From Pyrobaculum calidifontis JCM 11548 (GTDB lineage Archaea > Thermoproteota > Thermoprotei > Thermoproteales > Thermoproteaceae), in assembly GCF_000015805.1 (NCBI RefSeq), contig NC_009073.1:600001-632000 (forward strand): a DNA stretch of 32,000 bases, given 5' to 3'. The position numbers and the translations under genes are program-made. The notes beneath the pieces were generated by a model. It was not told the origin of the DNA. It saw nothing but the letters and a program-made list of their open reading frames with translations, and searched no databases. Shown in pieces: positions 1 to 15,344 of this stretch (positions are counted from its first letter, which is position 1; the number at the start of each line of letters is the position of its first letter).

Positions 1-1281
1 GAGCAGATAGGCAAGTTGATAACGCAACTCGCAAACCTCGGCATAGACGCCGACCGGTATGACAGAGTGAGAGACTTCTCGAAGCAGGTGCCGATTGTCC
101 CCACGAGCGCGGTCACCGGCGAGGGGGTGGCCGACCTGCTCCTGGTGCTTGCTGGGGTTAGCCAGCGGTTTATACCGCGGGAGAAGCTCCAAGTCAGAGA
201 CGGCCCCGCGCGCGGCGTCGTGATGGAGGTGAAGGAGGAGAGGGGCCTCGGGGTCGTGGCCGACGTCATTTTGTACGACGGCAAGCTGAGGAAGGGCGAC
301 GTGATAGTCACGGCGGGGCTAGACGGGTCTCGGCAGGCCAAGGTGAGGATGCTCATAATGCCGAAGTCGCTGGAGGAGATGCGGGACCCCGAGGACAAGT
401 TCATGGCTGTGCAAGAGGTGGAGGCGGCGGCGGGCGTGAGGGTAGTGGCGGAGGGGCTTGAGGGCGTGGTGGCGGGCGCCCCGCTTCTAGCCGTGTGGGA
501 CCCAAAGGACCTCCCCGAGGCGCTTAAGAGCGTGGGGGAGGAGATAGCGGAGATCAAAATAGAGTCGGACAAGGAGGGCGTAATCGTTAGAGCAGACACC
601 TTCGGCACTCTGGAGAGCATAATACTCTTCTTAAGACAGCAGGGAGTCCCCGTCAGAAAGGCGGACGTGGGGCCGCCTACGCACAAGGACGTGGTGGAGG
701 CGGTGCTGAGCAGGAGGAAGAACCCCGCCTACGGAGCAATCCTGGCCTTCAACGTGAAAGTGCCCCCGGAGGTGGAGACCGAGGCCCAGTCCTCTGGAGT
801 GAAGATAATACGCGGGGAAATCCTCTACCGCATATTCGACGAGTACGTCAAGTGGTCTACCGAGGTGAAGACGAAGACCGTTGAGCAAGTGCTCTCCCAG
901 CTCACCCGCCCCGCGAAAATCCAAATACTCCCCGGCTACGTGTTTAGGAGGAGCGACCCGGCCATAGTGGGCGTGAAAGTGTTGGCCGGAACGCTCAAGC
1001 CCGGCGTCACCTTGGCCAAAGACGGCAGAGAAGTGGGCAAGGTAATGCAGATACAGCGCCAGGGCAAACCCGTCGCAGAGGCTGTGGCAGGCGACGAGGT
1101 GGCCATATCTATACAGGGAGACGTCATAGTGGGCCGTCAGATAAAGGAGGGAGACGTGCTCTACGTCTATATCCCAGACGAGCAGGCCAGACAGTGGCTA
1201 TTCCGCTACAAGCAGTACCTCAGAAAAGACGAGGTAGAGGCCTTAGAGGAGTACCTGAAGACAAGAAAGAAGTCAGCATAA
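1..1281 (+). CDS. infB: Translation initiation factor aIF5B (IF2-type), C-terminal ~425 aa; the 5' end lies outside the window
   Basis: Frame 1 is open from base 1, so track ORF 16..1281 is only the first in-frame Met. The sequence after the GTPase domain is typical of aIF5B domains II-IV: [78 protein letters not shown]. Confidence 0.85.
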
Positions 1282-1641
1282 ATACTCTTTAACAAATCTG
1301 CCGAGCTGTTGGTCGCAGTTGGCGACGAGATATACAACACCCTCCCTCGATTGTTTTCTCGACAGTGCCGCCGCAATCTTGGGAACCATGGGGTCAACCC
1401 TCCTATGCCCGTGGGCAACTGCCACTATAAGCCCAAAGCCCTGGTAGTCAACAAGAGAGCCCCTCCTAATTGTTTCCACAGTGGCCACCAGCTGGTCTAT
1501 GTCGCGTTTTCTTACGTCCTCAGCCTCTTCTACGACCATTAAAGCTCGCCATCCAACGAGTAAATAATCGGCGCGCTGCTGACCGCCCATTACCAGCAAC
1601 TCGTCTAAGTCGATTCTTTCGGGCCTGCACGTGTCGCTCAT
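1273..1641 (-). CDS. Hypothetical 122-aa protein, second gene of the ATPase operon; possible minimal TOPRIM-like fold (speculative)
   Basis: The ATG at 1641 directly abuts the ATPase stop (TGA 1644-1642, giving TGAATG), so the two genes are co-transcribed or coupled. I recognise no family. The strand/helix alternation is ALMVVEE (E38/E39) - helix - GLIVAVAHG - helix - VVYLVANCD(110)QQ. This places an acidic residue at the end of strand 1 and an Asp about 70 aa later, as in TOPRIM, but there is no intact DxD. The 3' end overlaps the infB stop by 9 nt (convergent). Confidence 0.5.
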
Positions 1642-3027
1642 TCAGCTAGAGAGTATCCTCGCCCTCTCCTCGGCGAGCTCCACGGCGACGCTTGCGAACT
1701 CATCCTCTGAGAATCCCTCCGGCCCAACATCGAGCTTTTCCACAACCGCTCTGTCCCCCTCCGCCTTGACGAGGTACGCGGCCACCGACTCGGGGCGCAA
1801 CACCTCATCCTCGGCGAATCCCAAGGCCCTCGCCCTCTCGGGGGACCGCGAAAGCGCTATGAGGTCGTTCAGCCTATAGAGCATGTAGTCGCTGTGCGTC
1901 GTCAAAACCACGTGCTTACCCCTATTAACTGCCTTCGCGATAAGCCGTGCCAATGCCCCCTGGGCCCGCGGGTGTAAATGAGCCTCAGGCTCCTCTATTA
2001 TTACCACGTGTGGCGGCCCTCTTGAAGAAAGCGCAATGGCTACCGTTAAAACCTCCCTTATTCCAGACGGCGCCTGTGGAAGCCTCAGCCGCTTGCCGCT
2101 CCAAGTCTTGATGTGTATAGTGTACACTCCCTCCTCGATTACAGGCTCAACAGAACATCCCATTTCTAAAAGCAGAGGCTTAACAGCGGCTAAGTCAATA
2201 CTTTCCTTAGCTACCCATTCAGCTAATGCATAATATAGTTCAACGTATTGCTTATCAGGGTATGTTATAGCTATCGGGATATACGGCCTTAGAAGGGTCC
2301 GGGATATTCCAGCGCGACTATCAGGCAAAAGCGCAGAAAAGAGCTCAAGAAAGGGAAAAAGTCCGACGGGAAGGGGTAAGGGGATAAGGTGTTTGAACGG
2401 TCCACCGAGAGTTAACATTATATAAACGCTTACAAACGTGTATAGTAATTCTATAATACTAAATCTGCTTGTTCTTGTTAGTGGAACACTTATTGTAAAG
2501 CGACTTTTATCATAACTAATCGTTACTTCTCTTTGCGAAGTTTTGATCTCGCTTATAAATTCATCAATAGATGGTCCTTTTATAGAAACATCTACATTTT
2601 TTCCATTGATAGTAGTTTCTATCGAAGTCCTCTCCCCCTTAAGCGTTATTGTTGCGTGGTTTGCTCCCTCTCTAACTAATTCGTCTAGATCGAATGTGAA
2701 GACTTTCTTAAGTGCCTCCTCTACGCTTGGTGCAAGAGCTTTGGGCAATACATAGATTGCTATGTTCATAAGTTCCATAAGCTCTTCTTTAAAGTCGTCA
2801 CCACGCTTAGCTTTCTCAATTACAGCTTCCAGCGCCTTGTTGCCCCCAGCATCAACGATAGCTTTTTCAAGTCTTGTTGGACGTGGGATAGCCAGGGTCA
2901 GCGCCCATATGAGATATGCCAACATGGACTTCCCCACGCTGTTTCTACCAATGAAGACAGTCAAGGGCTTGAGCTCTACCTCAGCCTCCCCGAAGGGTCC
3001 AAAGTCTTTTACAACAAGCCTTACCAC
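1642..3027 (-). CDS. ABC/SMC-like AAA ATPase (AAA_15/AAA_21 class 'predicted ATPase'), 461 aa
   Basis: GTG start at 3027 with an AAATTATTTTA TATA-like box about 25 nt upstream (within 3047-3061). Motifs: Walker A GRNSVGKS (aa 27-34), signature-like PSGIREV, Walker B/D-loop VVIIEEPEAHLHP, H-loop LTTHSD. A long insertion separates the A and B motifs. The central part of the gene is much more AT-rich than its ends. Confidence 0.85.
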   Translation of the reverse strand: MVRLVVKDFGPFGEAEVELKPLTVFIGRNSVGKSMLAYLIWALTLAIPRPTRLEKAIVDAGGNKALEAVIEKAKRGDDFKEELMELMNIAIYVLPKALAPSVEEALKKVFTFDLDELVREGANHATITLKGERTSIETTINGKNVDVSIKGPSIDEFISEIKTSQREVTISYDKSRFTISVPLTRTSRFSIIELLYTFVSVYIMLTLGGPFKHLIPLPLPVGLFPFLELFSALLPDSRAGISRTLLRPYIPIAITYPDKQYVELYYALAEWVAKESIDLAAVKPLLLEMGCSVEPVIEEGVYTIHIKTWSGKRLRLPQAPSGIREVLTVAIALSSRGPPHVVIIEEPEAHLHPRAQGALARLIAKAVNRGKHVVLTTHSDYMLYRLNDLIALSRSPERARALGFAEDEVLRPESVAAYLVKAEGDRAVVEKLDVGPEGFSEDEFASVAVELAEERARILSS

Positions 3028-3112
3028 AATGCATTGTTTGCCAGAACGTAAAATAATTTACTAAACGGCGACACCGGGGACGAGCAAGCTTCGATGGAGA
3101 ATAGGAGGGGTA

Positions 3113-3197
3113 TGCGGGGGGTGGGATTTGAACCCACGTAGGCCTACGCCACAGGGTCTTGAGCCCTGCCCCTTTGGCCTGGCTCGGGCACCCCCGC
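3113..3197 (-). tRNA. tRNA-Leu (anticodon CAA), no intron seen, CCA not encoded
   Basis: Minus-strand read: GCGGGGG-TG-CCCGAGCCAGGCCAAAGGGG-CAGGG-CTCAAGA-CCCTG-TGGCGTAGGCCTACG-GTGGG-TTCAAAT-CCCAC-CCCCCGC-A. It has a 7-bp acceptor stem, a 5-bp anticodon stem with loop CTCAAGA, the long variable arm typical of Leu, and a T-arm GTGGG/CCCAC with a TTCAAAT loop. Confidence 0.95.
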
Positions 3198-3218
3198 CGA
3201 TAGTGAATACACACGGGG

Positions 3219-3224
3219 TTTTAA
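3219..3224 (-). promoter_or_regulatory. TATA-like box (TTAAAA on the minus strand) for tRNA-Leu
   Basis: The plus strand reads ggggttttaagc, and its reverse complement GCTTAAAAC lies 22-27 nt upstream of the tRNA 5' end at 3197. Confidence 0.4.
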
Positions 3225-3627
3225 GCTTTCTCGCCGTAGTGAGGCGCTGTTAGTTGGCGTCAGCCTGCGCATATAGACGTCTATGTTGTTGTAGCCTCTT
3301 TATGTGCTTCAGGCCGTTTCTGAGAATTATTGTGCCGTAACTTCATCTGGATAGGGCCATGGACGATGCGGAGATTATTAGGGCTATTGAGAATGCCATA
3401 TGAGGTTGACGGCCGCTATGAGCTCGCCGAGGCGGCGAGGCGCGCAGTGAGGCAGATACCGTGGATGCGTTGGCCGCGGCTTGGGGGCCCAAGTCTCTCG
3501 ACAAGGTGAGGGAGAAGCTTGAGAGCTGGGTTTTCTATCTCGCTGTGGTTGAGTCGATGCGCCATTTAGGGAGAGGGCGGCTGGGCGAGAGGTTGCAAAA
3601 GTTTTAACTTCACAATCCCTCTTTTCT

Positions 3628-4053
3628 GTGCTTAGGCTTCCGCCTAGGGTTAAGGTGTTGGAGGCGCTGGGGGCGTTAGCGGATGGGAGAGTTAAGAGGG
3701 TGGGGGAGGGGGTGTGTGAGGTGGTGTCGTCGGAGGGGGATAGGGTGTACCACGTGGCTGTGAGGGGGGTGTATGTGAGTAGTGATGACAATGGGACTGT
3801 GTATAGGGGGTATGTGGGGTATCCCATTATCGCCTGTCTCATGGCTGAGGGCAGACTGCCGATGGATTGGGAGCTGGCGGAGCGGCTCAGGGGCGTGCCG
3901 TGGAGGAAGTTGAACGAGTTGTACAAGAGGTATGACGAGGTGGTTAAACACGTCTACGCAGAGCGGCGTATTGACAGATCTAGGGCCGAGCGTTACATAT
4001 CTACGGTGTTGGAGCAGTTGGCCAAGATGGGCCTACGCCGTGAGGGTCCTTGA
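3628..4053 (+). CDS. Conserved-looking hypothetical protein, 141 aa
   Basis: GTG start at 3628 lies about 25 nt downstream of aaagttttaac (3598-3608). Codon usage is protein-like. The 3' end overlaps the probable queE GTG start by 14 nt, which suggests an operon. I recognise no motif. Confidence 0.6.
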   Translation: MLRLPPRVKVLEALGALADGRVKRVGEGVCEVVSSEGDRVYHVAVRGVYVSSDDNGTVYRGYVGYPIIACLMAEGRLPMDWELAERLRGVPWRKLNELYKRYDEVVKHVYAERRIDRSRAERYISTVLEQLAKMGLRREGP

Positions 4054-4690
4054 GATATTCGCCTCGTTGCAGGGGGAGGGCGTCAACTTGGGCAAGCCGG
4101 CAGTCTTCGTGAGGCTGGCCGGATGTCCCATTAGGTGCGTGTACTGCGACACGGAGTACTCTTGGGACTTCAACGGGGGCGTCGAGATGTCGCCGGGGGA
4201 GGCCGTGCGGCGCGCCGAGGAGCTGGGGGTGAGGGGCCACGTGGTGGTGACTGGGGGCGAGCCGCTTGTGTGGATGCGGAGGGGCCTCGAGGAGCTTGTC
4301 TGTGGGCTGAGGCGGCTTGGGGCGGTGGAGGTTGAGACCAGCGGAGTATACGCGCCTACGCCCGAGCTAGACGCATGTGCGGACTTCTACGACGTGTCTC
4401 CCAAGTTGTCTAACGCCGGGGTGAAGGCCCCCCTGAGCCCCTTCTACCCCAAGAGCCCCAAGGTGTGGTTTAAATTCGTAGTGGCGGACGTGGCCGACGT
4501 GGAGGAGGCCCTGGCCTACGTAAGGGAGAGGGGGATCCCCCTAGACAGAGTTATGCTAATGCCCATGTCGAAGACGCCGGAGGAGCACGCCGAGGTCCTC
4601 AGGAGGATCTGGGACGCGGCAGTGAGGGCAGGCCTTAGGGTAACCCCGAGGCTCCACATAGTGGCGTGGGGAAACGCGAGGGGCAAGTGA
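4040..4690 (+). CDS. queE: 7-carboxy-7-deazaguanine synthase QueE (radical SAM)
   Basis: N-terminus VRVLEIFASLQGEGVNLGKPAVFVRLAGCPIRCVYCDTEYSW carries the QueE LQGEG motif and the CxxxCxxC radical-SAM cluster. GTG 4040 is chosen because the track ORF start (3932) runs through the upstream gene in another frame. The C-terminus PRLHIVAWGNARGK is typical. Confidence 0.85.
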   Translation: MRVLEIFASLQGEGVNLGKPAVFVRLAGCPIRCVYCDTEYSWDFNGGVEMSPGEAVRRAEELGVRGHVVVTGGEPLVWMRRGLEELVCGLRRLGAVEVETSGVYAPTPELDACADFYDVSPKLSNAGVKAPLSPFYPKSPKVWFKFVVADVADVEEALAYVRERGIPLDRVMLMPMSKTPEEHAEVLRRIWDAAVRAGLRVTPRLHIVAWGNARGK

Positions 4691-5081
4691 GGCGGCTTAC
4701 GAAGCCTACTCCCCGCGGGGCCCCGCCCTTAGGCCGAATTGGTTCGCTGTTTTCTACGGCGAATTTCCGCCGAGTCGGCGGCGCCTTTAACTAAACGGCG
4801 CGCCGTGGTTAAAAGCGGGGATTCAAAGGCTGTACATAAATGTATTTAGATTGTTCAAATAGGCGCCGTTGTGCCTGCCCAGTGGTGGCAGTTGGGTCTG
4901 GAGAATGCGCGTGTTTCGGTAAACTCCACATCACTCCCACGCTGTCTACATCGTTTTTAAACTGTCGTCTGTCACGCGGTGATATGCACCCACGCTCTAA
5001 CTTGGGGGAATTGGCCAAATTTTACGTGGAGGGGGCGAGACTGACGGTAAAGCAAACGTCCCATTTCCTGGGAAACTCATC

Positions 5082-5154
5082 GGGGGAGGGGATGATGAGA
5101 GGGAACTAAGGGGACAGATGCCCGTTGACCTGCTCACTGACTCTCCCCTCCCCC
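5082..5154 (+). ncRNA. C/D-box-like k-turn RNA unit (left arm) closed by a 10-bp terminal stem
   Basis: GGGGGAGGGG (5082-5091) is followed by a C box ATGATGA (5092-5098) and 12 nt. Then come GGGA-CAG-ATGCCCG (degenerate D'/C' that can form a small GGG/CCC hairpin) and 12 nt TTGACCTGCTCA. A D box CTGA (5137-5140), CTCT and CCCCTCCCCC (5145-5154, a perfect complement of 5082-5091) complete the unit. A T-rich tract follows. Confidence 0.45.
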
Positions 5155-5720
5155 TCTTTCTAGTAAACTCTTTGTGGGTTTAGATAAACTTTTCTCCGCC
5201 GACCCGATACTCTACTATTCATGACTCTGAACTTTCATGAGTTGGTAGTCGCTCCTGGCGGCGGTTGTGTGCTGATTAAAGTTTCGGTAACCTCCTTTAG
5301 CCAGACGTTGCATAACTTCGGCGATAGACTGGCGAAAAGGTAGGAGGGTACATATATGGCGTAGTTAAAACGAGCGAGCTTGTTGCAGGCGCATATAGCC
5401 CAGGCATGCTGAACAAGAATCGGCTTAGAGATGCGCTCTACGTTGAGATACCCACCTTTATTGCCTATGAGCAACGCGAGAAGTCGGTAAAAGAGCTGTT
5501 GAACATACTGGCCGCCGCTATGTCATATACCCCCTGCCCCTTTTCGCTAGGTGCATCGCCGAAGTTGGGCAACTCTGGCCGGAGGAGGCCGCCGAGGCTA
5601 GAAATTGGCGCACAGCCGCCAGGGGCGACTGTCAACTCGTGAATGTTCAGAGTCATGAATAGTAGAATATCAGGTCGGCGGGAAAAATTTTTCTAAGCCT
5701 ACAAATAGTTTATATGGAGA

Positions 5721-5792
5721 GGGGGAGGGGAGTGTCAGCTAGCATGGGTTCGGGCAGGAGCCCTTGCCAATCCGCTCATCATTCCCTCCCCC
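5721..5792 (-). ncRNA. C/D-box-like k-turn RNA unit (right arm, mirror paralogue)
   Basis: Minus-strand read: GGGGGAGGGA (5792-5783), C box ATGATGA (5782-5776), 12 nt GCGGATTGGCAA, GGGC-TC-CTGCCCG, 12 nt AACCCATGCTAG, D box CTGA (5738-5735), CACT, CCCCTCCCCC (5730-5721). Boxes, spacing and terminal stem are conserved with the left copy, while both 12-nt guide-position segments differ. Confidence 0.45.
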
Positions 5793-6239
5793 AATGAATT
5801 TTCCCATGACGTATAAGAGCAACCACACTTGCCCACTTCCTCCTCTCTCCATGGAAAACTTGGCCAACTTCCTCGGCCTGAAACACAGATGTATACCACC
5901 ACGTGACAGACGTCGGTTTAAAAGCGAGTGTAGACAGTGTGGAAGCGAGGGGGGTCGCTGAATCTTATGTCTTCCTCAAGTTCAACTGTCACCAGTGGGC
6001 AGGGGCGGCTCCAGCTGTAGCGCGCCGTGTCAATTTGAATGATGTTCGTTTTTGTATCGCTCTTGAACCTCCGCTCTTAACCACGGCGCGCAGGCAAATT
6101 GAAGATACTGCCAATCGGCGGGATCCGCCGTGGGGAACGGCGAAGGTCTTCGGCTTAAAGGCGGGGTCCTTCGGTGAACCGGCTCTTAGAGTTTGATTAA
6201 AAGTGCAAAACTTATCAAGTCGCTCTTGTAATACGGTCT

Positions 6240-8600
6240 GTGAAGCTGCACGTGTGGCTCACCGTTGCCTCGGTAGTGCTCGGCGTGTTGCAGGTAGGTG
6301 CGCAGTACGTATGCGCCACTGCGGGCGAGCTTGGCGTTGCTGGGCGTAGCCCGCTGGTGCAGTTCATGGTGTGGGACGGCGGCTGGAAGCCCGTGGAGGC
6401 CTACGTGGAGGGCGTAGATGCCCTCTTTGTGCCAGCCCCCCTTGCCCGCGGCAACGAGGCGGCGATTTCGCTGGTCGCACAGAGGGGCGTCCTGCCCCCC
6501 GGCGTCTTGAAAAACGAGACCTTGATATGCTTCAAGCCGGGCAGTGGAATTCCCAAGTTGCCCCGGGACACGCCCCGTGGACTACTCGTCGTGTACAAGG
6601 CGGGGGGCGCGGAAGGCCACGTGCTAATCGTCGACGTAGCCGACGTAGACAGGCCAGCACAGCCGCTGGCTGCCGCCGCACTTCCCAAGAACTTCACCAA
6701 GGTCCAGGTGGTGGAGAGACAGTGGGTTGGGAGCCCCGCGGGCCGCGCCGTGGAGCTAGCCCAGGTGGGCGCCTTGCCCTCTCCCATCTCCTACGCGGCC
6801 TCGTTCAGCCTAAGAAGCTTCTTCGGCGCGCAACTGTCGCCCGGCGAATTGAGGTGTAGCTACTTTGACGTCCCCAGCGAGACCAGCTACGTGGCAGTCT
6901 ACTTTAGGCCGGGGACGGACCCAGGCACCTACTACTACGAGGTTAAGAGAAACGGGACACTGGCGTCAAGCGGAGTTATCTCCTACACTGGCGGCCCGTT
7001 TGGGACAGCTCTGTGGGCCAGCGAAACCGGCGGCAGAGCCACCTACCAGCTCTGCATCCAGAACAAAGACAACGTCACGCGGTCCGTCTCGGCGACGGTA
7101 TACCTCTACGTGAGAAACCAGCTAAACATCATCAGAGACGACGCGTATTATACCAACGTCATAGATGTCGACATGTCCACGTCTCAGCGGAGGAACTACC
7201 GCATGTCTAATACGTATTTGTACTTCCCCGGCTACGTGGACATAGACGCGGCGAGCGTCATACAGATCTACGTCTCAGCCCTCTTGAACCCAGAGGCTGT
7301 GCGCAAGGACTCCCAGGGCAGGTACTACATCGACGTGTACTGGGGACAGCTCTATATGGGCAGGCTGTATGGCATATCCACCGCCAGCGGCGTCAAGTTC
7401 GATGGAGTTTTAACAGTCCCAGCGTTCCTACACTGGATAATTACAAACACGCGGGGGTACGGCGGCACGATATCGATAGGCCCCTTCAACTACCCAGCCT
7501 ACCCAGTTAAGGGCAGTGCACGAGTAGATGTCTTTGTGGAGAGGCCCGTGGAGCTGGCCAACGCCAGCTCTGCCGTGTTGATCCATTATGCGACTGTAAG
7601 GCTCAGAGCTGACGCATCCTATCACGATGTAATGCCGTGGTCCAGCGGCTTCAAAGGCGTCTCTTTTAAGACTAGAGTGGAATTTGTATTCAGCGGCTCA
7701 GCTGGTCATAAACTTGTAGTATCAATAAATCCATACAAGTGGAATAATGTTGAAAATGATATAAGGTATAGAAGAATTACTATTAATATAACAGGTATAG
7801 ATTATTATGGTAACCCTGTGAAGTTTAGCGCTGGCGGCCAGTTCGACTTAAATGCTCAAAGTACCACAGGCCAGTTGGCGAGGCTGATTGAGTGGGCATC
7901 CATAATTCTGCAAGGTCTCGATCTAGGAAAGGCCGTCGTAGATTATCTTGCAAAGGCTCCCTCGTCGTTTCCCACCGTCTCCTTCATAACTATTGCACTA
8001 GACGCCTATGTCAATGCCATACAAGAAAAAGGCACTGTGCAGATTTCGCCAGATGGCACTATTATGAAGATCGGCGTATATACAGGGTATTTGTTCAACA
8101 TTCCACTTTACCTACTGTTTTTCTTGCGTTTTCCCGTGCCCGATCTGCTTCCGCCGTCTGTGATTTCATGGTTTTCTGCCTACTACTTGGCGCACGGCCG
8201 CCGCATTTTTCCGCCGGCCCTCTACCTTGCGGCGTTTGCCTCCTCTCTCTTAGATTCGTTGTATTTTGGCCCCCGCGTTGGATCGCTGGCCTCGCCTGTG
8301 GTGTTGCTGGCGGCGCTGGCTTTGGCCGTGCTTTACGCGGCTACTTTTGCGAGGGGCTTTGGGCAGAGGGTGGCCTCTGTGGTGCTCCTCGTATTAGCCG
8401 TGGCGGTGGGCCACGTCCTCGTGGTGGCGGCGGCTGTGGCGTGGCGAGCCCTGGCGCCTCCGCTGGGCTTTCTGCCCCTGCCCGAGCCCCTGGACCTCCC
8501 CCTCTATCTGTTGGCCTTCGCGGTGTTCTACCTCGTCCATTATAAAGGCCTGGGTTACCTACACAGGTGGTGTGAAAGCCGCAGGGTGAGAGGCGCCTAG
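6240..8600 (+). CDS. Large orphan membrane glycoprotein: N-terminal signal/anchor, ~600-aa extracellular region, C-terminal polytopic membrane domain
   Basis: GTG start. The N-terminus is hydrophobic (LHVWLTVASVVLGVLQVGA). There are many N-x-S/T sequons (NET, NFT, NGT, NVT, NAS, NIT). The last ~200 aa contain several hydrophobic helices (e.g. LASPVVLLAALALAVLYAATF, VASVVLLVLAVAVGHVLVVAAAVAW, LPLYLLAFAVFYLV). I recognise no family. Confidence 0.7.
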   Translation: MKLHVWLTVASVVLGVLQVGAQYVCATAGELGVAGRSPLVQFMVWDGGWKPVEAYVEGVDALFVPAPLARGNEAAISLVAQRGVLPPGVLKNETLICFKPGSGIPKLPRDTPRGLLVVYKAGGAEGHVLIVDVADVDRPAQPLAAAALPKNFTKVQVVERQWVGSPAGRAVELAQVGALPSPISYAASFSLRSFFGAQLSPGELRCSYFDVPSETSYVAVYFRPGTDPGTYYYEVKRNGTLASSGVISYTGGPFGTALWASETGGRATYQLCIQNKDNVTRSVSATVYLYVRNQLNIIRDDAYYTNVIDVDMSTSQRRNYRMSNTYLYFPGYVDIDAASVIQIYVSALLNPEAVRKDSQGRYYIDVYWGQLYMGRLYGISTASGVKFDGVLTVPAFLHWIITNTRGYGGTISIGPFNYPAYPVKGSARVDVFVERPVELANASSAVLIHYATVRLRADASYHDVMPWSSGFKGVSFKTRVEFVFSGSAGHKLVVSINPYKWNNVENDIRYRRITINITGIDYYGNPVKFSAGGQFDLNAQSTTGQLARLIEWASIILQGLDLGKAVVDYLAKAPSSFPTVSFITIALDAYVNAIQEKGTVQISPDGTIMKIGVYTGYLFNIPLYLLFFLRFPVPDLLPPSVISWFSAYYLAHGRRIFPPALYLAAFASSLLDSLYFGPRVGSLASPVVLLAALALAVLYAATFARGFGQRVASVVLLVLAVAVGHVLVVAAAVAWRALAPPLGFLPLPEPLDLPLYLLAFAVFYLVHYKGLGYLHRWCESRRVRGA

Positions 8601-8974
8601 GCGCACAGCGCTGGCCGCCTAAGACGGCGCCAGAGGAGGTCGCCATCTGCCGACATGTGCTACGTCTCTAGCCCAGCACGGCTGGGGCTTCTGCCCCGCC
8701 TACACGACACGTTGATTGAAAAACTGTATCGACGCAACGCCGCCGATCCGCCGACGCGTTTGCCTAAGCGTCTCAATTCCTTTACTTTAGTCACAAACTA
8801 GTGGGCTCTTGGACTGTGTCTAAGAACTGCGTCTCTGGTTGTCGATAGCGCTTCTTAGAGAGCCGCTGTTCATGGACGTGTCTGGCTAATGCGAGGTGCT
8901 TCTAGCCGCCCTGGCGTGTGGCCGATTCCAAGCCCCTCGGGGAGATAAAATATTTACCCCTCTCCTTCTCCTCC

Positions 8975-9109
8975 ATGGCTCGCACCAAGGCGGAGAGACT
9001 GCGCGACGCCATTGAGATGCTTGAGACGGCTGTGGAGGAGAGGGATTGTAGCCTCGTGGAGGATGCGCTAGAGGAGCTACGCGCGTTGCTTGAGGAGCTG
9101 GAGGAGTGA
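8975..9109 (+). CDS. Small acidic helical protein (44 aa), translationally coupled to the dipeptidase
   Basis: ATG 8975 lies 22-28 nt downstream of the TATA-like ataaaatattta (8945-8956). The sequence is MARTKAERLRDAIEMLETAVEERDCSLVEDALEELRALLEELEE. Its stop overlaps the next start (GTGATG). The track ORF start at 8918 precedes the TATA box. Confidence 0.45.
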   Translation: MARTKAERLRDAIEMLETAVEERDCSLVEDALEELRALLEELEE

Positions 9110-10029
9110 TGCTCGTCGACTTGCACGAGGATATTGCACACTATTTTCTCACCTCTCTCAACCCCCCTCCGTTTCACGAGGACGCGGAGGGAAGGCAGAG
9201 CGACTTGCCTAAGCTGAGGAGGGCGGGCGCCGATGTGGTAGTCGCCGCGGTGTTCCCCTTTGTCCACGTCTACGATAGGTGGGCCGCCGCGTCTCAAGTG
9301 GCGCTGGAGGGGGTGAAGGTGTACTACTCCCTCGCCGAGAGATACGGCGTGAGGATAGTGGAGCGCGCAAGCGACCTCTGGGCCCCCGCGCTTAAGTTCA
9401 TGCTGGCGCTGGAGGGCGCAGACGTGTTAAACGACGTTGGCGACCTCAAGCTGTTTTATAGGCTGGGCATACGCGTCTTGGGGATTACGTGGAATTTAGA
9501 CAACAAGTGGGGCCACTCTTGCTACGCCAAGCGTGACGGAGGCTTGACCGCCAGCGGCGAGGAGCTCGTCGCCGAGGCCGAGAGGCTGGGAGTGGTCATA
9601 GACCTCGCCCATGCCAGCCGCCGCACGGCTTTAGACGTCTTGGCCATGGCCAAGAGGCCTGTGATAATAAGCCACGCCAACGTAAAAGCCGTCCACGACC
9701 ACCCGCGCAACGTCGACGACGAGGTGTTAAAGGCCTTGGCGGACAACGGCGGGGTAATAGGCCTCACACTGATCCCCTCCACTATCTCCCCCTCCCCCTC
9801 TCTCAACCACTTGGTAAAGCACTTCAAGTACGTGAGGGAGAAGTTTGGGGTGGAGGTACTCGCCGTGGGGACAGACTTCCTTGGCATTTCCTCGGCGCCT
9901 CCTGGGCTGGAGACTGTGGACAAGGTAGCTGTTTTGGCCAAGGCGCTTGTGGAGGTCGGCTTTTCCAAAGAGGAGGTAGAGGCCGTGTTTTGGAGAAACG
10001 CGCTACAAGTCTTTAAGAGGGCCTTATAA
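9109..10029 (+). CDS. Membrane (renal-type) dipeptidase, peptidase family M19
   Basis: The N-terminal LVDLHEDIAHY matches the M19 metal-binding DxHxD motif. The sequence has a TIM-barrel-like pattern with LGITWN, VIDLAHAS, PVIISHANV and GTDF. The start could be ATG 9109 or GTG 9106. Confidence 0.75.
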   Translation: MLVDLHEDIAHYFLTSLNPPPFHEDAEGRQSDLPKLRRAGADVVVAAVFPFVHVYDRWAAASQVALEGVKVYYSLAERYGVRIVERASDLWAPALKFMLALEGADVLNDVGDLKLFYRLGIRVLGITWNLDNKWGHSCYAKRDGGLTASGEELVAEAERLGVVIDLAHASRRTALDVLAMAKRPVIISHANVKAVHDHPRNVDDEVLKALADNGGVIGLTLIPSTISPSPSLNHLVKHFKYVREKFGVEVLAVGTDFLGISSAPPGLETVDKVAVLAKALVEVGFSKEEVEAVFWRNALQVFKRAL

Positions 10030-10056
10030 CTTATAAGGTTGAAACGGCTTTGGTGC

Positions 10057-10455
10057 ATGGGTCTCGGCGATGTGCTCTTGGTCCTCCACGTTTTAGGCAT
10101 CGTCGGGTGGGCGGGCCTCACCACGGGGGCATATTTCGTGCTGAGGGAGTGGCGCCCCCGCGAAGTGCCTAAGTCCTATCAAAGGCTTGTCCACCTAGAG
10201 GCCGCGGCGGGCGCCTTGGTCTTCGCCACGGGGGTGGCCATGGCGGTGTACCTCTACGGCTTCCCCAAGTCCCCCCTGTGGATACACTGGGCTCTGGGGA
10301 TCGCGATAGTGGTGGGCCTGCTGGAGGTCTTCCACGTCTATGCCGTCCGTCGGTGGCCTCTTGAGCGATATGTGAGACTTGCGAACCGCCTAGTGCCCGT
10401 GTGGGCGGCTGTCTTAGTTTTAATGCTCTGGCTGATGGTGGCTAAGCCGTTTTAG
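10057..10455 (+). CDS. Small integral membrane protein (about 4 TM), unknown function
   Basis: ATG 10057 lies 25-30 nt downstream of a palindromic TATA element, ccttataacttataagg (10022-10038). There are four hydrophobic segments. The track start TTG 10039 lies inside the TATA element. Confidence 0.6.
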   Translation: MGLGDVLLVLHVLGIVGWAGLTTGAYFVLREWRPREVPKSYQRLVHLEAAAGALVFATGVAMAVYLYGFPKSPLWIHWALGIAIVVGLLEVFHVYAVRRWPLERYVRLANRLVPVWAAVLVLMLWLMVAKPF

Positions 10456-11453
10456 CCCCGCGCCACCTTTGCCCTGGCCTTTTTCAAGGCCAGTTCTACC
10501 TCCTCCGCGGAGGCCCCCAGCCAGTTGGCCTCCCTCAGCGCCTCGGGGGAAATTTCAATTGTGCCGTCTGGCCCCCTCTGCCCCCTCTTCTGTATCTCCC
10601 ACATAAGCCTGTACACCCTGTCCCGCTTCGCCTGCACGGCTAGAATGGCCTCCTCGAGGGACTGCCCCGCGAGGGTTCTCAGCACTATTTCTGCAACTTT
10701 GTTAATCCGGTCGGGCACCCCCACGGTGGACCCCCTGAGCTCTATGCGGCACCTCTTCTCTACGCCTATGAGCTCCGCCAGCCGCCTTGTGCCAGACTTC
10801 ACCACGTGTTCCTTGTCCACAATGCCGCCGATGATGAACTCTACATGGCTCCGGGCGACCTCCTCTGTGAATAGGCAGGGGCCCTCGGGGTCTAAAACCA
10901 CAGGCGACTGGAGAGGCGGCATGTCTTCCACAATGCGCATCTTGTGAACCATGCCCCTCGCGTGTAGCTCCAATAGCCTCACAAACTCCGCCGGGGCGTG
11001 GGTAATCCACAGATTGCCATCCCAGAGCACCCCCCTCACCACCCCCAGCGTTGCCAAGATCTGTTCCACAAGCTCGTGTTTTTCGCCAGGCGTGTGTTCG
11101 TCCCACAGAGAGAGGTCTATCACTATGCGCGGCGCCTCTGGCAGAGACACATCCACGTTGATCGGCTCGGCGCACTGCTTGGCAAGAGTCCACGGACACT
11201 CGGCGCCGCCGCCCGCGCGGAGAAGCTCCACGCCGCTCCACACCCCAAGGGGGGAGCCCCTGCACGGCGACTTGCACACGTGGTACTTCCCAATGGCCAC
11301 CCCCACTGCCACGCACTGCGCCAGCTCCCCCCTACACTTAAAGTGGCGTGGGATACAGAGGCAGGAAACGCCCTGTGAGGCCAGTGCGTCGAAGAAAATA
11401 CGCCAGAGGGGAGTCAAGTGGGGGTCGCGGGGGGAATCCGCGGCTAGACCCAC
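10452..11453 (-). CDS. trm10: Trm10-like SPOUT tRNA (m1R9) methyltransferase with a Cys-rich N-terminal extension
   Basis: IVIDLSLWDEHTPGEKHELVEQI and LRGSTVGVPDRINKVAEIVLRTLAG match what I remember of archaeal Trm10 (IIDLYHWDKHTQKEK ... VGVPDRINRILGIIL in the Thermococcus enzyme). IIGGIVDKE is also present. The start is set to GTG 11453 because the track start at 11573 overlaps the upstream metE-like gene by 130 nt, and there is no in-frame ATG before residue ~190. Confidence 0.7.
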   Translation of the reverse strand: MGLAADSPRDPHLTPLWRIFFDALASQGVSCLCIPRHFKCRGELAQCVAVGVAIGKYHVCKSPCRGSPLGVWSGVELLRAGGGAECPWTLAKQCAEPINVDVSLPEAPRIVIDLSLWDEHTPGEKHELVEQILATLGVVRGVLWDGNLWITHAPAEFVRLLELHARGMVHKMRIVEDMPPLQSPVVLDPEGPCLFTEEVARSHVEFIIGGIVDKEHVVKSGTRRLAELIGVEKRCRIELRGSTVGVPDRINKVAEIVLRTLAGQSLEEAILAVQAKRDRVYRLMWEIQKRGQRGPDGTIEISPEALREANWLGASAEEVELALKKARAKVARG

Positions 11454-12598
11454 CAGTACTTTTCCCTCAGCGCCTTGGCGGCCTTTACCATTACTTTGAG
11501 CTTCTCCAGCGCCACTGCCCTTGGGAAGGCCCTGTACATGCCTGGGGCGAAGCCACAGTCCGGATTTAGCCAAATCCGCGTGGGGTCTACGTACTTCGCG
11601 ACTCTCTCCACGTGGGCCACGACCTCTTCCACTGTTTCAACTCTCTTGGGGTCTCTCACGTCTATCGAGCCTAGACCTATCTCTTTGTCGCTTGGCAGTA
11701 TCTTGGCGAATTCCTCGGGGTTGCCCATCCTCGGGTGCTTGTACTCAACGACGTATTGCCGCACCTTAATGTCGAAGATCTGCGGCGCCAGCCTCTCATA
11801 GCCCACCACTGGGGAGTCCTCAGTGGGCCACCTGTCGAGGTGCATCCCCAGCCTCACCGACGTGCCGTAGCCCTGCACCACCTCGTTTACCAAGTCAACG
11901 GCGAGCTGGATCTCGTCTCTGAGGCCTCTGTACCGCTGTCCATAGAGCTCGGAGGCCACTTGCTTGTACCTATCCGGCTTGTCGGGCTCCGCCTCTATTA
12001 AGTCCCCCAACATTGGCTCGTCCAGCTGTATAAACGCCACGCCTTTGTCGATGAGGCGCGCGATCTCTCTCCGAAGCACCTTGGCGTAGGCCTCTGCGGC
12101 GTCTTCGGGCCGCGGGTAGTAAGGCGCAGAGATCTTGTGGTGCCAAGCCTCCCACATTATCAAGTAGGGGGACGGGAGGGTGACCTTGAGAGGCCTCGTG
12201 GCGACCTTCTTGGCGTACTCCACCTCGTCCACGGCTATGATGCTGTCCTCTATGTACCCCGCGATCACGGGTCTCCACAGGGTGAGAGGCGCCTTGTACT
12301 TCTTCATTATCTCCTTTGCGTTTGGATGTAGCTCCTCCACGCGGACGATCTTAAACCCCCTGAGCTTCTGTCCCACAAAGGCTACGAAGGAGGTCCTCCT
12401 CTGCTCCCCGTCGGTTATCACGTCTAGCCCAGCCTCCTCCTGGTCTCTAATGGCGAGCTTCACGGCGTCGTCTAGGTACTGGGAGAAGGTCTGCTGGTCT
12501 AACTGCCCCTTTTCAAATTTTTCAAACGCCTCGATTAGCCAGCTGGGCCTCGGCCACGACCCCACTACCGACGTTATAAACGCCCGTGGCAGAGACAT
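11444..12598 (-). CDS. Cobalamin-independent methionine synthase-like protein (MetE catalytic-domain family)
   Basis: The sequence MSLPRAFITSVVGSWPRPSWL ... DQEEAGLDVITDGEQRR ... IQLDEP ... NPDCGF is typical of the short archaeal MetE/Meth_synt_2 family. ATG 12598 lies 20-27 nt from the tttaaaaa box (12618-12625). The track start at 12679 is upstream of that box. Confidence 0.8.
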   Translation of the reverse strand: MSLPRAFITSVVGSWPRPSWLIEAFEKFEKGQLDQQTFSQYLDDAVKLAIRDQEEAGLDVITDGEQRRTSFVAFVGQKLRGFKIVRVEELHPNAKEIMKKYKAPLTLWRPVIAGYIEDSIIAVDEVEYAKKVATRPLKVTLPSPYLIMWEAWHHKISAPYYPRPEDAAEAYAKVLRREIARLIDKGVAFIQLDEPMLGDLIEAEPDKPDRYKQVASELYGQRYRGLRDEIQLAVDLVNEVVQGYGTSVRLGMHLDRWPTEDSPVVGYERLAPQIFDIKVRQYVVEYKHPRMGNPEEFAKILPSDKEIGLGSIDVRDPKRVETVEEVVAHVERVAKYVDPTRIWLNPDCGFAPGMYRAFPRAVALEKLKVMVKAAKALREKYWWV

Positions 12599-12709
12599 AG
12601 GGGCAAGTAAACCCCCCTTTAAAAACTCTACACGGCCTTCGCGCTCGCCCCCCGGCCGATTAGCCCACAGTCGTATCAATGTTAATATAGGGGAGATGAA
12701 GTAGCGTCT

Positions 12710-13918
12710 ATGTCTGTGGGTGGGAAAAGATTAGAAAACGTGTACCTAGTGGCATTTGCAAGAACGGCTTTTACAAGGTTCTCGCGGAAGGAGCCTCAGA
12801 AAGACGACTTCTGGGACCTAAGGCCGGAGGAGATAGCCGCAGTCCCTGTCAGGGCAATCCTCGAGAGGACTGGCGTAAAGCCCGAGGCGGTGGAGGACCT
12901 GCTTACCGGCACCGCGCTTCCGGTGGGCGAGCAGTGGCTCTACGGCGGCCGCCACGTCGTCTTTGCCGCAAAACTTCCCTACACAATACCTGCGGCCCAT
13001 ATAGATCGACAGTGCGCGAGTTCCATAACCACGGTGGCCATGGGCGCCATGGAGGTGGCCTCAGGCATGGCCGACGTGGTTATCGCCGGCGGAGTAGAGA
13101 AGATGTCTAAGACCCCCATGTATGAGAATCCCCACATCGAGATAAACCCCAAGTTTCTCACCGACGAGGAGTATGTCCACTTGTACAACCTCCACATTGG
13201 ATACGTCATGGGCCTGACCGCGGAGAGGCTCGCCGAGGTGTCTGGCATTAAGCGCGAGGAAATGGATGCCTGGTCTCTAAGGAGCCACAAGAGGGCTGCA
13301 GAGGCCTACGAAAAGGGGTACTTCAAGGAGGAGATAGTGCCAGTGGCCGTGGAGAAAGAGGGGCAGAAAAAGGTGGTTGACAGAGACCAGGCTGTTAGGC
13401 CGGACACCACTCTAGAGGCCTTGGCCAAGCTGCCGCCTGCCTTTAAGCCAGACGGCGTAATAACCGCCGGCAACTCCTCGCCGCTTAACTCGGGGGCGGC
13501 CTACGTAATGTTAGCCTCAGGCGAGGCTGTTAAGAAGTACGGCCTCCAACCCTTGGCAAAGGTGAGAGCAGTGGCCTTTGCCGGCGTTCCCCCAGAGGTT
13601 ATGGGCATGGGCCCCGTCCCCGCGTCTAGGAAGGCCCTTGAAAAGGCAGGCCTCACGGTGAAGCAGATAGGCAGGTGGGAGATCAATGAGGCCTTTGCCG
13701 TGGTGACTCTCTACGCGATAAAGGAGCTGGGCATAGACCCGGAGCTTGTGAACACAAGGGGCGGCGCCATCGCCATCGGCCACCCGCTGGGGGCAACTGG
13801 CGCAAGGATAATAGGGACGCTCGCGAGGCAGCTACAGCTCGACGGCGTGGACTACGGAGTGGCGACCCTCTGCGTAGGCGGAGGCCAAGGCGCCGCCGTT
13901 GTGCTAGAAAGAGTTTAA
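12710..13918 (+). CDS. Acetyl-CoA C-acetyltransferase (thiolase)
   Basis: Thiolase motifs are present: active-site Cys context DRQCASSITTV, NEAFA, GHPLGATGARI, CVGGGQGAAVVLE. The TATA-like ttaatata (12682-12689) lies 28 nt upstream of the ATG. Confidence 0.9.
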   Translation: MSVGGKRLENVYLVAFARTAFTRFSRKEPQKDDFWDLRPEEIAAVPVRAILERTGVKPEAVEDLLTGTALPVGEQWLYGGRHVVFAAKLPYTIPAAHIDRQCASSITTVAMGAMEVASGMADVVIAGGVEKMSKTPMYENPHIEINPKFLTDEEYVHLYNLHIGYVMGLTAERLAEVSGIKREEMDAWSLRSHKRAAEAYEKGYFKEEIVPVAVEKEGQKKVVDRDQAVRPDTTLEALAKLPPAFKPDGVITAGNSSPLNSGAAYVMLASGEAVKKYGLQPLAKVRAVAFAGVPPEVMGMGPVPASRKALEKAGLTVKQIGRWEINEAFAVVTLYAIKELGIDPELVNTRGGAIAIGHPLGATGARIIGTLARQLQLDGVDYGVATLCVGGGQGAAVVLERV

Positions 13919-13940
13919 AAACAACTTATTTCCTCCTCAT

Positions 13941-15344
13941 ATGCGTCTTTTGGCGGCGGTCCTACTGCTGGCAATAGCAGCTTTTTCCGTCACAATTGTA
14001 ACAAGGGCCGACCAAGCCTCAATTGACAGAGCGTTGCCAGTGCTACAGCGGTATTTCCCCGATGTGAAAATAGTACCGGCGGACCCCACCCAGTGGAGGG
14101 CCCTTATTGACCGAGGGGGCGTGGACTTCCTGTGGGCAGGCGCGCCGGTTTTATACGAGGTTTTACTGAAGGAGGGGCGGCTGGCGCCTATGCCCAATGT
14201 CCCCGAGCTACAAGCGTTGCCGGACAAGGTGGGCAACATACCGCTCAAGAGGGTGGTAAACGGTAGCGTGTACTACGTGGTATACGGCTTGTTGGGCTAC
14301 GTAATTGGCTACAACCAGGAGGCGCTCAAGAGGGCCGGCTTAGAGCCTGTGTGTAGCTGGAGCGGCTTCTCCTCTCCCAAGCTTGTCCAATACTACCTCC
14401 AGACAGGGAGCCGCCCCGTGGCCTTGGCGAAGCCCACTAAGTCTACCTCGACTGCGGCTATGATGCAGCTTGTGACAGAGATATACGGGTGGGAGGAGGG
14501 CTGGCGCTACCTAACGGCGATGGCGGCTGTGGCTAGGTTTGTGGACTCCAGCGGCGCCGTGCGCGACGCCGTGAAGCGAGGAGAGGCCCTCTTCGGCCCC
14601 ATGGTGGACTACTATGTCTTCATCGCGGGGCTGGGCTACTGTGTGCCAGAGGACGGCACAGACATACTGTTTGACCCAATTGCGGTCCCCAAGGGCGCCA
14701 ACATGACCGCGGCGGCTGTTTTGACAAGAGTCTTTCTCACAGACATTGAGAAGACTCTTGTAGATCGCTACATAATCCCCGGCAACCCCGCCGTGTTAGA
14801 CTCTCCAGATGTAAATCAGACAAAGGCGGCGGTGTTAAAGAGGCACCTAGAGTTGCTTAAGTCGAAGGTAAAGGCTGTGCCGCCTGAAAAGTCGGCTTCG
14901 TTCTACTACTCCTTCATCTACTACTACGAGGCCACCCTAGTTGACTTGCAAGACGTCTTAACAGACGTGTGGACGAAGGTGGTTAAGGCGTACCTCGCCG
15001 GCAACATCACGCGGCAGCAGTTCGAAGAGCTGTTGAGTCTCCTCGCCGCGCCGGTCAACTTCACAGACCCAGCCACGGGGGAGCGGCTCAAGTTTACATA
15101 CGACGTAGCGGTGAAGCTCAATGACAAGGTGGGGTCAGACCCCACTTACAGAGACCTAGTGTATCAAGCCTGGAGAGAAGCCGCCAGGGCCAAGTACAGA
15201 GAGGTAGAACGCCGGCTCGAGAGCTACCTCGCCTCCAAGCCCGCCGGCGGGGCCCCCTCGGCCGCCTTGCTCACGGCCGCCGCGGTCGGCGCCTTTGCAG
15301 TTGCAGTGGGGGCTTACCTACTAATGAGGCGGAGGGCGGGCTAG
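13941..15344 (+). CDS. Secreted periplasmic-binding-protein-like (ABC solute-binding family 1-like) protein with a C-terminal TM anchor
   Basis: N-terminal signal MRLLAAVLLLAIAAFSV. The PBP-like pattern is DVKIVPADPTQW...GGVDFLWAGAPVLYEVLLKEGRLAP and LLGYVIGYNQEALKRAGLEP. The C-terminal anchor is ALLTAAAVGAFAVAVGAYLLMRRRAG. No permease or ATPase gene is adjacent. Confidence 0.5.
   Translation: MRLLAAVLLLAIAAFSVTIVTRADQASIDRALPVLQRYFPDVKIVPADPTQWRALIDRGGVDFLWAGAPVLYEVLLKEGRLAPMPNVPELQALPDKVGNIPLKRVVNGSVYYVVYGLLGYVIGYNQEALKRAGLEPVCSWSGFSSPKLVQYYLQTGSRPVALAKPTKSTSTAAMMQLVTEIYGWEEGWRYLTAMAAVARFVDSSGAVRDAVKRGEALFGPMVDYYVFIAGLGYCVPEDGTDILFDPIAVPKGANMTAAAVLTRVFLTDIEKTLVDRYIIPGNPAVLDSPDVNQTKAAVLKRHLELLKSKVKAVPPEKSASFYYSFIYYYEATLVDLQDVLTDVWTKVVKAYLAGNITRQQFEELLSLLAAPVNFTDPATGERLKFTYDVAVKLNDKVGSDPTYRDLVYQAWREAARAKYREVERRLESYLASKPAGGAPSAALLTAAAVGAFAVAVGAYLLMRRRAG

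Follow-up and report, generated by a model that had tools for sequence, protein, structure and literature searches.

Two abutting minus-strand genes lie between the aIF5B (infB) gene and a tRNA-Leu(CAA) gene in the 32,000-nucleotide stretch of the Pyrobaculum calidifontis JCM 11548 chromosome analysed here (NC_009073.1, positions 600,001 to 632,000 of the forward strand; this whole stretch is called the window, and positions are counted from its first letter). The first gene encodes an ABC ATPase of the OLD type and the second a protein of 122 aa, referred to below as the small partner; together with a 5' spacer they make up a cassette that is present in some close relatives and absent from another. 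The features of the locus, the genes having been taken from the open reading frame (ORF) list, are:

1273..1641, minus strand: small partner gene, 122 aa (ORF list)
1642..3027, minus strand: OLD-type ABC ATPase gene, 461 aa, GTG start (ORF list)
3028..3107, minus strand: cassette-borne 5' spacer with the A/T-rich box TTTAGTAAATTATTTTA, inside the insertion/deletion (indel)
1272..3107, minus strand: whole accessory cassette, 1,836 bp, defined by blastn against contig L096
16..1281, plus strand: aIF5B gene, convergent (ORF list and domains of related full-length copies)
3113..3197, minus strand: tRNA-Leu(CAA) (ARAGORN and Rfam tRNA, 53 bits)

The initial annotation of this DNA had described two abutting genes beside tRNA-Leu and against the infB stop, and both the coordinates and the TGA/ATG junction were confirmed. 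No spacer separates the two genes (...AGC TGA/ATG AGC...), the stop of the small ORF overlaps the last three aIF5B codons by 9 nt, and the ATPase start is 85 nt from tRNA-Leu(CAA), which lies upstream on the same strand. The tRNA gene flanks the cassette and is outside it, its 3' end being 5 nt from the indel boundary, while the identity of aIF5B follows from the GTP_EFTU and IF-2 domains found in full-length copies on related contigs. The A/T-rich box TTTAGTAAATTATTTTA, read from the sequence about 20–37 nt upstream of the GTG start, is a putative archaeal TATA/B-recognition element (BRE) promoter, from which a leaderless or near-leaderless transcript would arise; a sigma-70 promoter and terminator scan was discounted, as its results have no meaning in an archaeal context. 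The two ORFs share one reading frame with a single TGA between them (window 1639–1644), an arrangement also observed in the related loci L089, L090 and L104–L109. A read-through fusion of both ORFs was considered and rejected, as the frame relation is not kept in L091 and L003, where the starts overlap, and programmed read-through is therefore unlikely.

The ATPase and its pairing with a small gene

The ATPase matched the Pfam families AAA_15 (1e-21) and AAA_21 (1.9e-18), and the best of its 128 PADLOC matches, judged without a curated cut-off, was PD-T4-4_A (PDLC04033; 1.8e-33, 114 bits), followed by NsnB, AriA, PDC-M47A (1.8e-23), HEC-01A and GajA. When PDB sequences were compared with the ATPase profile, the class-1 OLD nuclease 6p74 came first (1.3e-12), and then GajA, PtuA and AriA. 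The AlphaFold2 (AF2) model (predicted local distance difference test score, pLDDT, 88.1; predicted template modelling score, pTM, 0.89) gave Foldseek matches to the heads of Rad50, RecN and PtuA, with E values down to 9e-12. The class proposed for this protein in the initial annotation, an OLD/Septu/PARIS-like ABC ATPase, is thus upheld by Pfam, PADLOC, PDB-sequence and fold matches alike. In the model, an insert of about residues 35–230 between Walker A and the Q-loop is made of a helical bundle (33–117), a six-stranded beta subdomain (124–180) and helices (188–230), and the protein has no long coiled coil. Homologues of the ATPase number more than 1,200, those with names coming from Staphylothermus, Pyrobaculum, Thermofilum, Vulcanisaeta, Acidilobaceae and 'Thermoprotei archaeon'.

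The conservation of the ATPase motifs was read in alignments of 14 and 50 homologues, in which each of the following is invariant or nearly so:

G27–S34, GxNSVGKS, with K33: Walker A
D236-S-R238-A-G: Q-loop position, with Arg replacing Gln
320–325, P-S-G-x-R-E: signature
345–353, EEPEAHLHP (E345/E346): Walker B and D-loop
T-H378-S: H-loop

The translations contain every motif that the initial annotation quoted: the ATPase has GRNSVGKS, PSGIREV (320–326), VVIIEEPEAHLHP (341–353) and TTHSD (376–380), and the small protein has MVVEE, IVAVAHG and LVANCDQQ. The motif set of the OLD type (Walker A, Q-loop Arg, signature, Walker B and H-loop His) is therefore complete in the ATPase. Arg at the Q-loop position is a deviation of the OLD family and is essential in WonA, as judged from the mutant R182A (PMC12137116).

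Homologues of the small protein, 119–132 aa in length, lie directly behind ATPases of about 46% identity in Staphylothermus hellenicus, in Pyrobaculum metagenome-assembled genomes (MAGs) and in Thermofilum pendens, and the pairing of the ATPase with a small partner was also found in L009. BLASTP of the small protein against the downstream genes of three genomes gave E values of 7e-27 and 8e-13, with 29–45% identity to the homologues behind the ATPase in Staphylothermus, other Pyrobaculum and Thermofilum; because these homologues follow the ATPase, the small ORF is a real gene. Abutting or overlapping genes in the order ATPase and then partner occur in L001, L003, L007, L089–L091, L097, L100, L102 and L104–L109. 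Four distant representatives of the small family were sampled, and in three of them (P0184, P0223 and P0165) the small gene comes directly after, and overlaps, an AAA_15/21 ATPase gene, while the upstream gene that it overlaps in the fourth (P0204) is truncated at the end of the contig and unannotated. A rough neighbour-joining tree placed the ATPases whose partners lack a particular lysine in one clade, apart from those whose partners carry it in an ExK motif (both partner types are described below), and both genes have therefore diverged together. The description of the genes as a tightly coupled pair thus stands, homologous pairs being conserved across relatives in the order ATPase to small gene. 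On a distant branch, a second AAA_15/21-type ATPase gene was observed directly after the small gene (L097 2425–3846, L098 1217–2496), and these second genes may represent tandem modules.

The small partner: family, fold and conserved residues

A word-based search retrieved only seven close homologues of the small protein, and a profile search of 1.84 billion cluster representatives retrieved 106 clusters (clustered at 50% identity) at E ≤ 1e-3, 55 of them at E ≤ 1e-10; almost all of these proteins stand alone, with lengths of 100–150 aa. The small protein and all 77 family members examined gave no consistent match in Pfam, NCBIfam or PADLOC, in line with the earlier remark that it fits no known family, and the family profile returned only noise from the PDB sequences (TPR-CHAT, E 0.025). 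Residues D25, E38, D47, H77 and C109 are invariant between the window protein and the partners from S. hellenicus, the Pyrobaculum MAGs and T. pendens. In the 77-member alignment D25, E38, H77 and C109 are invariant, D47 is kept in 71 members and E39 in 69. Residue 40, the equivalent of the Lys in the D...(D/E)-x-K signature, is Thr in 56 members, Ala in 11, Val in 7, Lys in 2 and Ser in 1; the window protein has Ala there, so that D25 and E38 of the signature are present and its Lys is replaced.

The AF2 model of the small protein, made with a 24-sequence alignment (pLDDT 87.6, pTM 0.85), has strands at 8–11, 26–29 and 33–43, a helix at 45–60, a strand at 71–82, a helix at 85–100, a strand at 102–107 and a helix at 110–121. 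It reproduces the order of elements that the initial annotation had read from the sequence (the strand of E38, a helix, the strand of H77, a helix and a strand), but in front of these it has two more strands at the N-terminus, on which the invariant D25 lies. Foldseek gave no match at E ≤ 1e-3 for this model. The best PDB matches, at E 0.014–0.3 and template modelling (TM) scores of 0.3–0.46, are mostly nucleases of the restriction endonuclease (REase) fold, with the Hef/XPF nuclease domain at the top and with Bax1, Mus81-Eme, the Can2 nuclease domain, the ERCC1 central domain and the R.BspD6I small subunit, and further Hjc, FAAP24, McrC, Cap4 and Cdn1. Restriction endonucleases, Mrr-type ones among them, and a NERD protein are found among the matches to the viral models of BFVD.

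A scan of genome contigs with the ATPase alignment yielded at least 80 loci, mostly bacterial and some archaeal, the ATPases being mostly distant bacterial ones, with the close archaeal ones absent from the loci listed. The proteins encoded directly downstream of these distant ATPases typically follow the pattern 'C..GC ... CD(x)hhh ... hhELKSG ... QL..G ... CG', which amounts to a D...ExK signature. Among 46 such ExK-type partners, 8 match the best PDC-M47B model (best E 1.2e-7) and 4 match PD-T4-4_B. When the 77-member archaeal family was compared with 22 ExK-type partners by hhalign, an alignment of 97 columns was obtained with 89% probability and E 2.3e-6, in which D25 faces the CD aspartate, E38 and residue 40 the Glu and Lys of ELK, and C109 the CG cysteine; the score was 41.5, as compared with at most 11.4 (E ≥ 0.3) for a reversed control and eight column-shuffled ones. 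Because of the hhalign link with its controls and of the fold matches, weak as these are, we take the small protein to be, most probably, a minimal and divergent representative of the superfamily of REase-fold partners and not a TOPRIM protein.

The latter had been the proposal of the initial annotation, in which the small protein was seen as a stripped-down TOPRIM nuclease like those of OLD, Gabija, PARIS and RloB. Many AAA_15/21 ATPases pair with TOPRIM domains, and a TOPRIM layout could accommodate the strand-helix-strand-helix-strand order, in which the first strand bears an acidic residue. However, in the Foldseek comparison of the AF2 model, which had been suggested as a check, none of the top 50 listed PDB and BFVD matches was to a TOPRIM protein, and no TOPRIM-type profile of Pfam or PADLOC matched the protein or its family. 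The protein has no DxD, and D110, taken earlier for a 'strand-D' residue, is variable, the invariant residue being its neighbour C109. The position of D25 on an extra N-terminal strand and the spacing from D to E match the REase-fold partners, in which D...ExK...C residues align with D25, E38, H77 and C109, and the fold matches are mostly of the PD-(D/E)xK/REase type. The mini-TOPRIM reading was accordingly rejected, and we regard it as extremely improbable.

The conserved residues also bear on whether the partner is an enzyme at all, as it might instead, within the same two-protein complex, be a catalytically dead REase-fold adaptor that binds nucleic acid or regulates the ATPase and that acts by sequestration, by ATPase-driven remodelling or by recruitment of a host nuclease. 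Residue 40 is Thr, Ala or Val in 74 of the 77 members, and the WonB mutant K71A is dead (PMC12137116). Inactive REase folds (the ERCC1 central domain, FAAP24 and EME1) are found among the fold matches, and the ratio of non-synonymous to synonymous substitution rates (dN/dS) of the small gene, given below, is fairly high. On the other hand, the metal-binding positions D25 and E38 are invariant in 77 of 77 members, as is H77, and E39 and D47 are kept in most, while dead domains usually lose their acidic residues. Moreover, REase-fold enzymes with a replaced or relocated Lys exist, for example the E-x-E of BamHI. We consider a dead adaptor to be rather unlikely.

Presence, absence and allele variation of the cassette

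Anchoring on aIF5B gave five metagenome loci. In blastn comparisons, window 1–1271 corresponds to L096 6986–8256 (97.3% identity), window 3108–4688 to L096 8263–9865 (94.6%) and window 8948–14340 to L096 9866–15257 (98.1%). The 1,836 bp at 1272–3107 are missing from L096, which has 9 bp (ATAATTGGA) in their place. At this empty site TTGGA stands between the aIF5B stop and the 3' end of tRNA-Leu, and in the window the aIF5B gene takes its stop and its last two codons from the cassette. The cassette occupies the same site in L089 (92% nucleotide identity over the cassette), in L091 (87%), in L090 (82%) and in many metagenome contigs, and tRNA-Leu is present both at the empty site of L096 and beside the cassette in L089–L091. 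Three contigs with an 83%-identical aIF5B have no cassette, and their tRNA-Leu(CAA) is inverted with respect to the window:

L092 8508–8595: inverted tRNA-Leu(CAA)
L093 5567–5654: inverted tRNA-Leu(CAA)
L095 2190–2277: inverted tRNA-Leu(CAA)

The locus is accessory, and it is a single cassette and not an island. The comparison of sister strains proposed in the initial annotation thus bore out its view of a variable locus, the cassette being absent in L096 and present in L089–L091. Two further parts of that view were not sustained. The 'defence island' turned out to be one two-gene cassette among metabolic genes, and 'classical tRNA integration' was not supported, as the cassette holds no integrase gene (two genes only), no second copy of the tRNA 3' 23-mer was detected with 3 mismatches allowed, and no direct repeat flanks the cassette. 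By parsimony, the distribution points to long occupancy of this site by the cassette in the species group, followed by loss in the L096 lineage; filled and empty alleles may alternatively have been exchanged by homologous recombination of the flanks.

Outside this site, a 45%-identical version was found at an unrelated PaREP1-rich locus in other Pyrobaculum, and the pair homologues of Thermofilum and Staphylothermus are located among HEPN/MNT, PIN and MazE genes. More distant pair homologues (L003–L006, L007 and L001) were also observed in variable regions, with PaREP1, ATPase_2, DUF2283, HEPN/MNT (HepT-like, NTP_transf_2), PIN and MazE. A scan of IMG/VR with the small-family alignment gave no relative, and the ATPase, compared by tblastn with records of phages and plasmids, had only partial matches (≤40% coverage, <50% identity), all in bacterial phages and plasmids.

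The neighbourhood of PIN, MazE and HEPN/MNT genes would suit a toxin–antitoxin (TA)-like addiction cassette, in which one protein is toxic, the other neutralizes it and the pair persists selfishly with no antiviral role, and so would the Pfam label of AAA_21 ('putative AbiEii toxin, type IV TA') and the compact layout with its own putative promoter. Nevertheless, the close relative L096 lost or never had the cassette and bears no trace of damage, so that any addiction would be weak at best, and simple sequestration was excluded for WonAB, in which WonB is toxic only with active WonA (PMC12137116). We therefore judge an addiction cassette to be unlikely by a wide measure. The same distribution bears on a housekeeping role, in which a Rad50/RecN/RecF-like ATPase and a small structure-specific nuclease would serve DNA repair or chromosome maintenance. 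The top fold matches (Rad50 and RecN heads for the ATPase, Hef/XPF for the partner) point in that direction, but the cassette is absent from the close relative and from other Pyrobaculum-like contigs at the locus, divergent copies are found at other, variable loci in other Pyrobaculum, and the ATPase lacks a long coiled coil and has its sequence affinity with the defence ATPases PD-T4-4_A, AriA, GajA and PtuA, and such a repair pair appears very improbable.

The AT-rich core of the ATPase gene, which the initial annotation had pointed out, was confirmed, with a G+C content of 0.34–0.41 at 2250–2850 as against 0.58 for the window, and this stretch coincides with the ATPase insert (helical and beta subdomain). 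Over nt 150–600 of the ATPase gene the G+C content is 0.31–0.49 in the window and L089, and 0.53–0.58 in L090 and L091 except for one 150-nt block of 0.37–0.39. Protein identity between the ATPase allele groups is 50–67% in the insert and 80–100% at both ends, suggesting mosaic ATPase alleles in which the insert was replaced by recombination; an insert that served as the sensor would be expected to undergo such replacement in the course of an arms race. Across the four close alleles (window, L089, L090 and L091) dN/dS is 0.13–0.23 for the ATPase and, with few substitutions, 0.36–0.82 for the small gene.

The comparison with L096 also revealed a second indel, of about 4.26 kb (window 4689–8947), which is absent from L096, where positions 9865 and 9866 are adjacent. 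It holds a nested imperfect palindrome of about 1.3 kb (4785–6104; seven arm pairs, 75–89% complementary, centre near 5440) and an ORF of 786 aa (6240–8600, plus strand) with a signal-peptide-like N-terminus, a hydrophobic C-terminal tail and no Pfam or PADLOC match, the product of which may be a variable surface protein. On the plus strand at 3628–4690, two overlapping genes encode a UCP014422-family protein (141 aa, the family name being taken from related loci) and a radical-SAM/Fer4_12 protein (252 aa), and this gene order is kept in L089, L090, L104 and L107. Between tRNA-Leu and these two genes lies a decayed PadR-family regulator gene (about 3302–3604, plus strand), which is intact (136 aa) in L089 and has stops and frameshifts in the window and L096.

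Interpretation and comparison with known systems

Taken together, the gene structure, the intact ATPase motifs, the pairing across the family, the homology of the partner to ExK partners and the presence/absence polymorphism lead us to propose that the cassette is probably an archaeal branch of the systems that join an OLD-type ABC ATPase to an REase-fold nuclease (the PD-T4-4/WonAB kind), with the ATPase as sensor and licensor, the small partner as REase-fold effector, and an antiviral role. By analogy with WonAB, the ATPase would dimerize through its ABC head and form a complex with the partner. Its variable insert (helical bundle and beta subdomain, aa ~35–230) would sense a virus-derived cue as the trigger, and the ATPase would hold the small partner and then license it through ATP binding and hydrolysis. 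The partner, a predicted nuclease, would cut nucleic acid as its target (RNA or DNA) and stop the propagation of the virus, probably at a cost to the infected cell.

The chemistry of the partner may differ from the usual one, because the canonical lysine is absent and D25/E38/H77/C109 together with E39 and D47 are present instead. In a more specific version of the proposal, which is possible and which we hold tentatively, the Lys-less partner would be an active effector in which D25/E38 with E39/D47 bind metal and H77/C109 replace the Lys or bind a second metal, the cut licensed by the ATPase would fall on cellular RNA (tRNA/rRNA) at about 90 °C, and the AT-rich, swappable beta-subdomain insert would be the virus sensor.

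Several observations weigh against an antiviral ATPase–nuclease system. The canonical Lys position holds Thr, Ala or Val in all but three of the 77 family members, and the equivalent Lys is essential in WonB (PMC12137116). With the PD-T4-4_B and PDC-M47B profiles, the window protein gave no match at E ≤ 1 and none of the 77 family members (0/77) matched at E ≤ 0.1. The family is tied to the ExK partners by profile–profile comparison only, at 89%, and its fold matches, all at E > 1e-3 and TM 0.3–0.6, are mixed with STAS, Ras and Rpb5. The high dN/dS of the small gene could reflect relaxed constraint, diversifying selection or noise. No close relatives were found on viruses or plasmids in IMG/VR and the phage and plasmid records, and the remaining genes of the window are metabolic, giving no island context.

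In our view, the antiviral defence of hyperthermophilic Thermoproteota is poorly charted beyond CRISPR-Cas and a few systems. Defence finders that are based on hidden Markov models and need both components would probably overlook the pair, because the ATPase is its only component with a model match. If the proposed antiviral ATPase–nuclease reading is true, archaea too possess systems of the PD-T4-4/WonAB kind, a family of proteins of about 120 aa is defined that Pfam and PADLOC lack, the small partners provide a natural test of whether the lysine of the REase fold is dispensable in such effectors, and a clean with/without strain pair becomes usable for experiments. If the partner is indeed an active Lys-less effector, this would be the first abortive-infection-type ATPase–nuclease system described in Thermoproteota, and if it is inactive, the pair would still be informative on the degeneration or repurposing of ATPase–nuclease systems. 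The proposal is plausible rather than startling, and it offers a concrete, testable entry to ATPase–nuclease defence in hyperthermophilic archaea.

PD-T4-4 was found in Escherichia coli ECOR58 by functional selection, on an element resembling integrative and conjugative elements (ICE-like; Vassallo et al. 2022, PMC9519451). It has been placed among the systems that combine a PD-(D/E)xK nuclease and a P-loop NTPase, and it forms higher-order complexes (bioRxiv 10.1101/2025.07.10.664194), PD-T4-4_B being the PD-(D/E)xK nuclease (PMC12137116; bioRxiv 10.1101/2025.07.10.664194). Like the window cassette, it consists of two genes, an ATPase and then a small protein, and is located on accessory DNA; PD-T4-4_A is the best PADLOC match of the window ATPase, and the window partner family is linked, profile to profile, to a partner set of which some members match PD-T4-4_B. 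In contrast to PD-T4-4_B, the window partner is shorter (about 120 as compared with about 150–190 aa) and has neither the N-terminal Cys pair nor the ExK lysine, and the host is a hyperthermophilic archaeon.

WonAB comes from the WASA-1 prophage of Vibrio cholerae (Adams et al. 2025, PMC12137116). Compared by description, it likewise joins an OLD-type ABC ATPase with Q-loop Arg, Walker B Glu and H-loop His to a small protein of a variant PD-(D/E)xK type, the gene of which comes directly downstream, and it is also accessory and strain-specific. Both genes are necessary and sufficient for defence (PMC12137116; review PMC12409358). ATPase-motif mutations and WonB K71A abolish this defence, and WonB is toxic only in the company of active WonA (PMC12137116; PMC12409358). 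Infection is aborted without lysis, and an RNA target is suspected because translation stops and the genomic DNA is left intact, while WonB is predicted to dock on WonA's dimerized C-terminal extensions (PMC12137116; PMC12409358). Unlike WonB, which needs K71, the window family has Thr or Ala at this position, and whereas WonAB is borne by a prophage, the window cassette has no mobile-element genes.

The window ATPase also matches PDC-M47A (1.8e-23) of PDC-M47, a PADLOC candidate system on which no literature was found. Up to 8 of the 46 ExK-type partners of related ATPases match one PDC-M47B model, whereas the window partner and all 77 family members have no PDC-M47B match. With OLD, GajA, AriAB and PtuAB, the window ATPase shares the ABC-ATPase superfamily, as judged from PDB sequence matches and from fold (PtuA), and the logic of an ATPase sensor and a nuclease effector is common to all of them. 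Their effectors, fused or separate, are TOPRIM in OLD, GajA and AriB and HNH in PtuB, while that of the window would be a separate, minimal REase-fold protein.

The suggestion of the initial annotation that the pair may be an undescribed system holds in part. The kind of system is already known, as the 'OLD-ABC ATPase + novel REase' operon of Krishnan et al. 2020 (as cited in PMC12137116 and PMC12409358), PD-T4-4 and WonAB (PMC12137116), and the ATPase half is recognizable with standard models. What is new is the Thermoproteota branch, with a family of about 120 aa that is not annotated in the databases searched and has the signature AD...VEE[T/A]...D...H...C, in which the Lys has been lost and an invariant His and Cys gained, together with a pair of strains in which the site is filled and empty.

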